Shown here in pieces: positions 5,386 through 6,008 of a stretch of 6,008 nucleotides of DNA. The stretch comes from a virus (taxonomy: Duplodnaviria > Heunggongvirae > Uroviricota > Caudoviricetes): the IMG/VR virus record IMGVR_UViG_2648501150_000028. The stretch is one strand, 5' to 3'. The first letter of the stretch is position 1. Every line of letters starts with the position of its first letter. A model generated the notes under the pieces. That model did no database searches, was not told the DNA's origin, and saw nothing but the letters and a program-made list of their open reading frames with translations. Made by a program: the position numbers and the translations under genes.

Positions 5386-5588
5386 TCTGATTTTCACATA
5401 CTGTAAGGTTATTGCATATTCCTCCTAGTCTCTTCCCATTTTGACCCAGTTCTTCCCATAAATATCTCACTTATTCCCTGTCATTTATCTCAAGTCTAAT
5501 CACCTTTGTGAGTCCGGGCTGGTAAAAAAAGTCACCCGGAAAGGTGAAAAAGGTAACTCAAGTAATATCTATCTCCTTCATCTGGATG
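5386..5588. promoter_or_regulatory. AT-rich non-coding region downstream of mor; candidate activator-dependent (middle-type) promoter region
   Basis: No ORF with a canonical start on either strand. Contains a TTGACC -35-like hexamer (5441-5446) without a convincing -10 at 16-18 bp, and a direct repeat TCTTCCCAT at 5431-5439 and 5451-5459. In Mu the Mor-dependent promoter Pm lies just downstream of mor. Confidence 0.25.
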
Positions 5589-5765
5589 GTGCAGGAGATT
5601 CACTAGGGGGTAGTGCAAATAATTCACTATCTGGTGCAGCAAATTCACCAGGTAGTGCAGGAGATTCACTAGGGGGTAGTGCAAATAATTCACTATCTGG
5701 TGCAGCAAATTCACCAGGTAGTGCAGGAGTTGCACCAGGGGGTAGTGCAGGAGATTCACCCAGAA
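5589..5765. repeat. array of eight iteron-like direct repeats (core GTGCA-N4-ATTCAC, spacing 24/21/21 bp) forming a 66-bp higher-order unit
   Basis: GTGCA starts at 5589, 5613, 5634, 5655, 5679, 5700, 5721, 5745. The 66-bp blocks 5589-5654 and 5655-5720 are identical; 5721-5765 is a diverged partial third copy. Each unit has dyad-like GTG...CAC ends. Confidence 0.9.
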
Positions 5766-5839
5766 CCAGTCACTCTTTTGAACCAGTCAAAGAACCAGTC
5801 AATGAACCAATAGCTGTTGGTGCATCTGCTGATGAGTCT

Positions 5840-6008
5840 GTGCGAGTTCGTTCAAACCGACCGGAATACTCTCCGGAGTTTGAGCAGGCATGGCTGGCAT
5901 ATCCCAAACGTGCTGGTGGCAATTCAAAATCTGCAGCCTTCAAAGCCTGGAAAGCCCGTTTGAATGAGGGGGTAAACCCCGAAACCATGCTGGAAGGTGT
6001 GAAACGCT
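5840..6008 (+). CDS. 5' part of a protein-coding gene running off the window end; start uncertain; possibly replication-associated, unverified
   Basis: Frame 2 is open from 5462 to the window end with no stop, including through the repeat array, but the first in-frame canonical start is GTG 5840 (then TTG 5960, ATG 5987). Translation from 5840: VRVRSNRPEYSPEFEQAWLAYPKRAGGNSKSAAFKAWKARLNEGVNPETMLEGVKR. The W-x-x-Y-P-K-R ... A-F-K-A-W-K motif resembles ones I recall near the N-termini of phage/plasmid replication-associated proteins; this is not verified. Confidence 0.4.
   Translation, partial: MRVRSNRPEYSPEFEQAWLAYPKRAGGNSKSAAFKAWKARLNEGVNPETMLEGVKR

Follow-up and report, generated by a model that had tools for sequence, protein, structure and literature searches.

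In phage lambda and the Stx phages, the replication origin lies in the middle of the initiator gene O, where two extra iterons add 13 residues to the O protein; the number of iterons varies between phages and alters protein length (PMC7466680). An internal rep_origin is also annotated in gene 18 of phage P22. In the literature searched, relevant work on such origins was confined to lambda and Stx O, and no iteron, origin, binding or replication data were found for the protein family examined here, including SfV orf39 and the non-lambdoid Stx replication regions. The transposable phages Mu and BcepMu, like the element described below, encode a DDE transposase, an AAA+ partner, Gam, GemA and Mor and have TG...CA termini. 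They also share with it short target duplications of fixed length (5 bp in Mu), near-random targets and a target gene that is left as two pseudogene halves.

We analyzed a stretch of 6,008 nucleotides from a virus record (Caudoviricetes; IMG/VR IMGVR_UViG_2648501150_000028), here called the window, at whose right end an open reading frame runs through an array of repeats and has no start codon in front of it. Frame 2 is closed by a TAA at 5459-5461 and stays open from 5462 to the window end at 6008, and its only canonical start-type codons (ATG, GTG or TTG) are GTG 5840, TTG 5960, ATG 5987 and GTG 5999. Non-canonical candidates in this frame before 5840 are ATA 5462, ATT 5483, CTG 5519, ATC 5567, CTG 5582 and ATA 5810. 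This codon listing agrees with an earlier note on the DNA, which had described the frame as open from 5462 to the end with GTG 5840 as its earliest canonical start. Translation in frame 2 together with Tandem Repeats Finder also confirmed that the 66-bp repeats lie in frame and encode the peptide given there (...GAGDSLGGSANNSLSGAANSPGSAGDSLGG...). The remaining two forward frames have stops within each repeat, and in frame 3 an ATG at 5586 opens an ORF of seven codons. Antisense to the repeats, the minus strand has a GTG-initiated ORF of 75 amino acids (MNLLHYPLVQLLHYLVNLLHQ...) at 5532-5759, which results from the repeat periodicity and does not argue for a gene. A promoter and terminator scan of 5250-6008 returned nothing above chance. 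The earlier note had listed several explanations for the missing start without choosing among them, and its interpretation is partly supported by the results below.

In a similarity search with positions 5300-6008, query coverage stayed at or below 71% for every record, and the best matches all began at query position 204, i.e., at window position 5503. Alignment across this break showed a prophage match up to ...TCTAATCA (5502) and a match to orf46 of phage cdtI from CCTTTGTGAG (5503) on. The break coincides exactly with the canonical ...CA terminus of the prophage. We consider it very probable that the window holds the right-hand junction of a BcepMu-like prophage inserted into a lambdoid initiator gene, whose in-frame repeats would most likely be origin iterons. 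The features of the window on which this reading is based are the following.

1-5502, plus strand: early-operon end of a BcepMu-like (Bcepmuvirus) transposable prophage (identity to E. coli prophages, annotation, Pfam)
Up to 321, plus strand: 3' end of a DDE transposase gene (annotation, Pfam)
332-1498, plus strand: ExeA/MuB-like AAA+ ATPase (annotation, Pfam)
1798-2328, plus strand: Gam (annotation, Pfam)
4530-4979, plus strand: GemA/gp16 (annotation, Pfam)
4951-5340, plus strand: Mor (annotation, Pfam)
5341-5502, plus strand: non-coding right terminus of the prophage, ending ...CAAGTCTAATCA (same terminus before differing flanks)
5462-5502, plus strand: upstream extension of frame 2, made of prophage-end DNA; homology to the replication gene starts only at 5503
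5503-5508, no strand: predicted 6-bp target-site duplication CCTTTG (from 6-bp duplications of the same prophage elsewhere)
5503-6008, plus strand: 3' portion of a lambdoid O-like replication-initiator gene of the cdtI orf46/SfV orf39/mEp460 gp43 type (99.8% identity to cdtI)
5589-5759, plus strand: eight direct 15-bp sites GTGCA-N5-T(T/G)CAC with dyad-symmetric arms, probable iterons (repeat finding, shuffles, relatives)
5762-5790, plus strand: conserved box AGAACCAGTCACTCTTTTGAACCAGTCAA, encoding RTSHSFEPV (synonymous-site identity in six relatives)
5763, 5780 and 5792 (starts), plus strand: further GAACCAGTCA repeats within 5762-5809, continuing after the box (sequence)
5840-5842, plus strand: GTG, first canonical start-type codon in frame, corresponding to internal codon Val173 of the intact gene

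Ten complete E. coli genomes contain prophages that match the segment 1-5502 at 100% identity, and Escherichia phage PhiKM, classified as Bcepmuvirus, matches it at 99.0%. At least 80% of the segment is covered in 619 of 5,426 complete E. coli genomes, at many different sites. Pfam searches of the genes called at identical loci, together with RefSeq annotation, yielded the families rve, AAA_22, Phage_Mu_Gam, GemA and Mor; small ORFs are also present in the segment. Between gemA (gp16) and mor, which are read in different frames, there is a 29-nt overlap (4951-4979), annotated likewise in all identical prophages. In the complete prophage of E. coli EcPF7 (about 37.1 kb), invertase, tail, head and lysis genes lie on one strand and the early operon on the other. 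This operon comprises a repressor region, DDE transposase, ExeA/MuB-like ATPase, Gam, GemA and Mor, and reads outward toward the right end.

Comparison of further copies shows that position 5502 is the true end of the transposable prophage. The same 32-nt terminus was seen at 12 other loci with 11 different sequences behind it, among them araH, ycaL, allG and a nitrate reductase gene, and the right terminus contains transposase-site-like motifs, e.g., GAGATAAATGA at 5481-5491 on the minus strand. The left end of complete prophages starts with TGATGCGCC...GATAAATG, an imperfect inverted repeat of the right end that gives the element its TG...CA termini; TGAT and GATAAATG are common to the two ends. 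Three complete copies from three genomes start with TGATGCG..., end with ...TAATCA and lie between direct duplications of 6 bp (CCATTT, CTTGAA and GTGAAC). In strain MLI121, the same prophage is located within the toxin gene cbtA, for which RefSeq annotates two incomplete halves, one on each side; this split is an exact parallel to the situation in the window. A separate observation concerns the PhiKM record PQ738613, deposited as a "partial genome": at 11504-11880, non-phage DNA annotated as an ABC transporter permease comes after that same prophage terminus and leads on to tail-fibre genes, so that the record apparently joins both phage ends via packaged host DNA.

Homology to the replication gene begins only at 5503, and what precedes it is prophage-terminus DNA; the open frame at 5462-5502 (41 nt) thus lacks stops by chance and belongs to no gene. 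On the other side of the break, 5503-6008 is 99.8% identical to positions 37662-38167 of phage cdtI (NC_009514), inside the CDS 37483-38367, and 98 to 99% identical to SfV, mEp460 and several Stx phages. The matched genes are annotated as "replication protein", "DNA replication protein O" or "helix-turn-helix domain-containing protein". Orf46 of cdtI comprises 885 nt and 294 amino acids; position 5503 corresponds to nt 180 of its CDS, the third base of codon 60, and frame 2 of the window is the orf46 frame. The protein match runs from ...LCESGLVKKV on, with ...LCESGLVKKVTRKGEKGNSSNIYLLHLDGAGDSLGG... of the window equal to orf46 from residue 61. Codons 1 to 59 are missing, the gene portion is cut by the window end at codon 228, and across the 169 shared codons there is one amino acid difference (P for L). 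The possibility of a "recent 5' truncation or fusion" raised in the earlier note was correct: the frame is the 3' part of a replication gene that a transposable prophage interrupted at codon 60 when it inserted.

Intact orf46 matches Pfam HTH_36, a winged-helix domain, at residues 17 to 67 (2e-11), shows a weak DnaD_N match, and is similar to phrog_270, "replication initiation protein" (4e-88), with phrog_26426, 3729 and 1701 matched by its C-terminal part. A winged-helix domain and a replication C-terminal domain are thus both present in the intact protein, as in the HTH_36-type initiators (PHROG 270 and relatives). Intact proteins start with MSMELMVKAM..., and five close homologues do not differ over the first 61 residues. 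Judged from these alignments, the insertion would have removed the ATG and cut through the winged-helix DNA-binding domain, with most of HTH_36 missing. The fragment in the window on its own gave no match in a Pfam search because the HTH is cut off, and the truncated copy should be non-functional as an initiator.

In analogy to the three complete copies, we infer that the missing 5' half lies at the far end of the prophage. There, nt 1-185 of the gene, ending ...CATATTGCGGCCCTTTG with the duplicate CCTTTG, would be followed by the prophage, with a predicted left junction of ...GCGGCCCTTTG joined to TGATGCGCC... (also written as ...AATCATATTGCGGCCCTTTG joined to TGATGCGCCGCGCGATAAATGCAC...). 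The predicted 31-mer across this left junction and the 30-mer across the right junction each had no matches in the genome_contigs, metagenome_contigs and viral_contigs collections. The right junction was also absent from all complete E. coli genomes and plasmids searched, and the predicted 100-amino-acid product of the 5' gene fragment had no match in the protein collection. Because stops and frameshifts are absent and both halves are identical to intact relatives, the sequence argues for a recent event.

Within the gene fragment, Tandem Repeats Finder reported a 66-bp unit with 2.4 copies at 5589-5749 (96% matches) and a 21-nt subperiod with 7.7 copies at 5589-5759; two 66-nt copies match each other at 100%. 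Within the array, eight 15-bp sites in a single orientation can be recognized, starting at 5589, 5613, 5634, 5655, 5679, 5700, 5721 and 5745, with a spacing of 24, 21, 21, 24, 21, 21 and 24 bp. The arms of the site at 5721 are perfectly palindromic, and this site also matches on the minus strand, so that the 15-nt core GTGCANNNNNTKCAC has eight sites on the plus strand and nine matches in total. The repeat pattern is real and far above chance, since shuffled sequences contained the core 0.05 times on average and none of 200 shuffles reached nine matches. Alleles with five sites are found in SfV, mEp460 and E. coli 4/1-1 and those with eight sites in cdtI, E. coli DCE7 and the window; they differ by 66 bp (22 codons), in frame.

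We then compared the array with seven relatives that had been chosen only by similarity of the N-terminal domain (55 to 72% identity to cdtI), namely cdtI, Salmonella S137, Klebsiella RothC, the "O" protein of Stx phage 24B, Vibrio V039C, Vibrio D290 and mEp010. All seven carry tandem arrays, with a period of 21 to 24 nt and two to eight copies, which start at gene nt 263 to 314. The arrays differ in sequence and have mostly dyad-symmetric arms, such as GTGAC-N5-GTCAC, GGGCAG..CTGCCC and TGCCA-N5-TGGCA. The peptides encoded by them differ wholly (GAGDSLGG, STPPVPPE, GGAGAA, VTPGVVTQSH and SPPSDRMSP), and the repeat period is divisible by 3 in cdtI and in most, but not all, relatives. DNA features held across the relatives are cores of 15 to 17 bp, mostly dyad-symmetric arms and, in most, a period of 21 to 24 bp. 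N-terminal domains of 54 to 83% identity go with different repeat cores. More distant relatives from Pseudomonas and Vibrio show the same layout, with a spacing of 17/22 in Pseudomonas. Because the peptides differ while position and symmetry of the array persist across relatives, the conserved entity is the DNA pattern of phased, mostly dyad-symmetric sites between the two domains, not the peptide.

The arrays mostly end at or near a nucleotide-conserved box. Using the box of the window as a DNA pattern, we retrieved 79 distinct viral contigs from IMG/VR, a sample that is biased to box-bearing loci by this retrieval. An array is present in 72 of them and in many ends directly at the box, and 78 of the 79 have an ATG 309 to 417 nt upstream. 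Roughly a dozen core types can be distinguished by eye among these contigs, many with dyad-symmetric arms. As in iteron-type origins, the window thus contains dyad-symmetric direct repeats that are about two helical turns apart and lie between a DNA-binding and a C-terminal domain. No AT-rich unwinding tract was found beside the array: the GC content in 40-nt windows ranged from 0.33 to 0.58, with 0.43 to 0.58 downstream of the array and 0.33 to 0.40 immediately upstream. The repeats are most likely replication-origin iterons of the lambdoid phage that also serve as Gly/Ser/Ala/Asn linker codons, and the initiator would be expected to bind them and the region to act as an origin.

Conservation of the box was assessed solely in the relatives chosen by protein similarity. 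It is present in six of the seven, with all synonymous sites identical among phages of E. coli, Salmonella, Klebsiella and Vibrio. In pairwise comparisons of codons for identical residues, the same codon was used in 120 of 120 cases in the box versus 305 of 804 (38%) in the N-terminal domain of the same genes, which points to selection at the DNA level. Immediately 3' of the box the sequences diverge and the C-terminal modules differ. Tandem Repeats Finder detected a 12-nt tandem repeat at 5780-5809, and distant relatives have a degenerate box with RAACC every 11 to 12 bp or so. The box, of which the literature searched made no mention, probably acts in cis as part of the origin, marks a module boundary, or does both.

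It adjoins iteron arrays of many different specificities. In cdtI, SfV and mEp460, PerC-like or methylase genes, and no helicase or loader gene, follow the initiator gene. Relatives sharing the N-terminal domain have different C-terminal domains and P-like, DnaB-like or primase-helicase genes downstream. These arrangements amount to an exchange of modules downstream of the box. A tentative reading, which we hold to be possible rather than probable, is that the box with its phased GAACC repeats forms an undescribed origin core shared by a large family of HTH_36-type phage initiators, involved in unwinding or helicase loading, and maybe also a joint for module recombination. At such a joint, a specificity module (DNA-binding domain plus iterons) and a helicase-recruitment module may be exchanged.

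Other explanations of the start-less frame were weighed against an insertion. The gene could be complete in the window and use a non-canonical start (ATT 5483, CTG 5519, ATC 5567 or CTG 5582) or a frameshift from the frame-3 ATG at 5586, and indeed frame 2 is open from 5462, such codons are present and the ATG opens its seven-codon ORF. However, the DNA upstream of 5503 is a prophage terminus common to loci with unrelated flanks, and all intact homologues use an ATG 179 nt upstream of the point equivalent to 5503, with no recoding. Both variants, which the earlier note had considered, were discarded as the upstream DNA is homologous to a different element; the unusual start they provide is superfluous, and we regard their probability as negligible. 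It is also highly unlikely that the repeats are non-coding origin DNA in front of a shorter gene starting at GTG 5840. This codon is the first canonical start, and the exact 122-amino-acid protein predicted from it is annotated on 123 public contigs (one of 5.39 Mb) as "replication protein" or "hypothetical protein", but any 5'-truncated copy forces a gene caller to this product. The records show how annotators handle truncated copies rather than what the product does, and it seems that E. coli assemblies commonly contain copies of this gene that lack the 5' end. Furthermore, intact genes cross the repeats in one frame, the five- and eight-site alleles differ by exactly 66 bp, and residues before V173, e.g., RTSHSFEPV, are conserved as protein. 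The comparison of homologous loci proposed in the earlier note therefore gave a clear answer: homologues that start at the equivalent of GTG 5840, which would have spoken for non-coding repeats, were not what we found, as intact genes start upstream and translate through the repeats, and the coding reading stands.

That the junction is not a stable chromosomal insertion is improbable in our view, although it is missing from every collection searched and the PhiKM record itself has non-phage DNA after the same terminus. It could stem from an assembly chimera, from a later rearrangement, or from host DNA packaged beside a phage copy that had transposed replicatively; in virions of Mu-like phages, the flanking host DNA varies. 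A break located exactly at the canonical ...CA terminus is unlike random misassembly, however, and a packaged flank would still record a real transposition into the gene, leaving the explanation of the start-less ORF unchanged. For the repeats, one may suppose that they form just a low-complexity linker, expanded and contracted by slippage and without a role at the DNA level. The Gly/Ser/Ala/Asn-rich peptide of varying length and the lack of an adjacent AT-rich tract are in line with this, whereas the complete change of peptide composition across relatives, with persistence of cores, dyad arms and period, makes it unlikely.

We thus favor an insertion as the origin of the locus and propose the following course of events. 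A BcepMu-like transposable prophage would have inserted into the initiator gene (cdtI orf46 type) of a resident lambdoid prophage after gene nt 179 (185 counting the duplicated 6 bp), separating the ATG and most of the N-terminal winged-helix domain from the remainder of the gene. The downstream part would have retained its frame without a start, with 41 nt of prophage-end DNA contributing the open frame upstream. The start-less ORF is an ordinary result of transposable-phage insertion, with no unusual start or recoding. In the intact gene, the repeats would be translated as a flexible linker from the DNA-binding domain to the C-terminal domain. The N-terminal domain of the initiator would bind the iterons as dimers and open the DNA beside the array, as lambda O does at ori-lambda.

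With its initiator truncated, the resident lambdoid prophage is probably replication-defective. Explaining the frame by insertion also guards against mis-annotation, e.g., of a 122-amino-acid "replication protein" from GTG 5840. More broadly, a widespread initiator family that is unrelated in sequence to lambda O appears to share the origin-in-gene design with iterons as linker codons. The box offers a concrete candidate, open to testing, for a functional core common to these origins and a possible search motif in enterobacterial and Vibrio phages.

Compared with Mu, the element described here duplicates 6 bp, its early operon reads outward at the prophage end, and its target is the replication gene of another prophage. 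The interrupted gene is closest to cdtI orf46, SfV orf39 and mEp460 gp43, to which the window fragment is 98 to 99.8% identical. In contrast to SfV and mEp460 with their five-site allele, the window has the rarer eight-site allele of cdtI and E. coli DCE7 and lacks codons 1 to 59. In Stx phage 24B, the N-terminal domain of O is of this type (66% identity), and array position and box are likewise shared. Like lambda O with ori-lambda and P22 gene 18, the orf46 type combines an N-terminal DNA-binding domain with dyad-symmetric direct repeats that lie in its own gene and are translated as a linker between two domains. The analogy to lambda O drawn in the earlier note, i.e., linker-encoding iterons inside the gene, is backed by the comparison with relatives, albeit not as sequence kinship: an orf46 homology to lambda O or P22 gp18 was rejected, as BLASTP against P22 gp18 gave no detectable similarity (E = 5). 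The orf46 type has HTH_36 and no Pfam match to Phage_rep_O, unlike lambda O. Compared with the lambda origin, 15-bp cores are spaced by 21/24 bp here, and a 29-nt box with GAACC repeats takes the place of the AT-rich tract. Finally, no P-like or helicase gene follows the initiator gene in cdtI, SfV and mEp460, in contrast to the arrangement in lambda.
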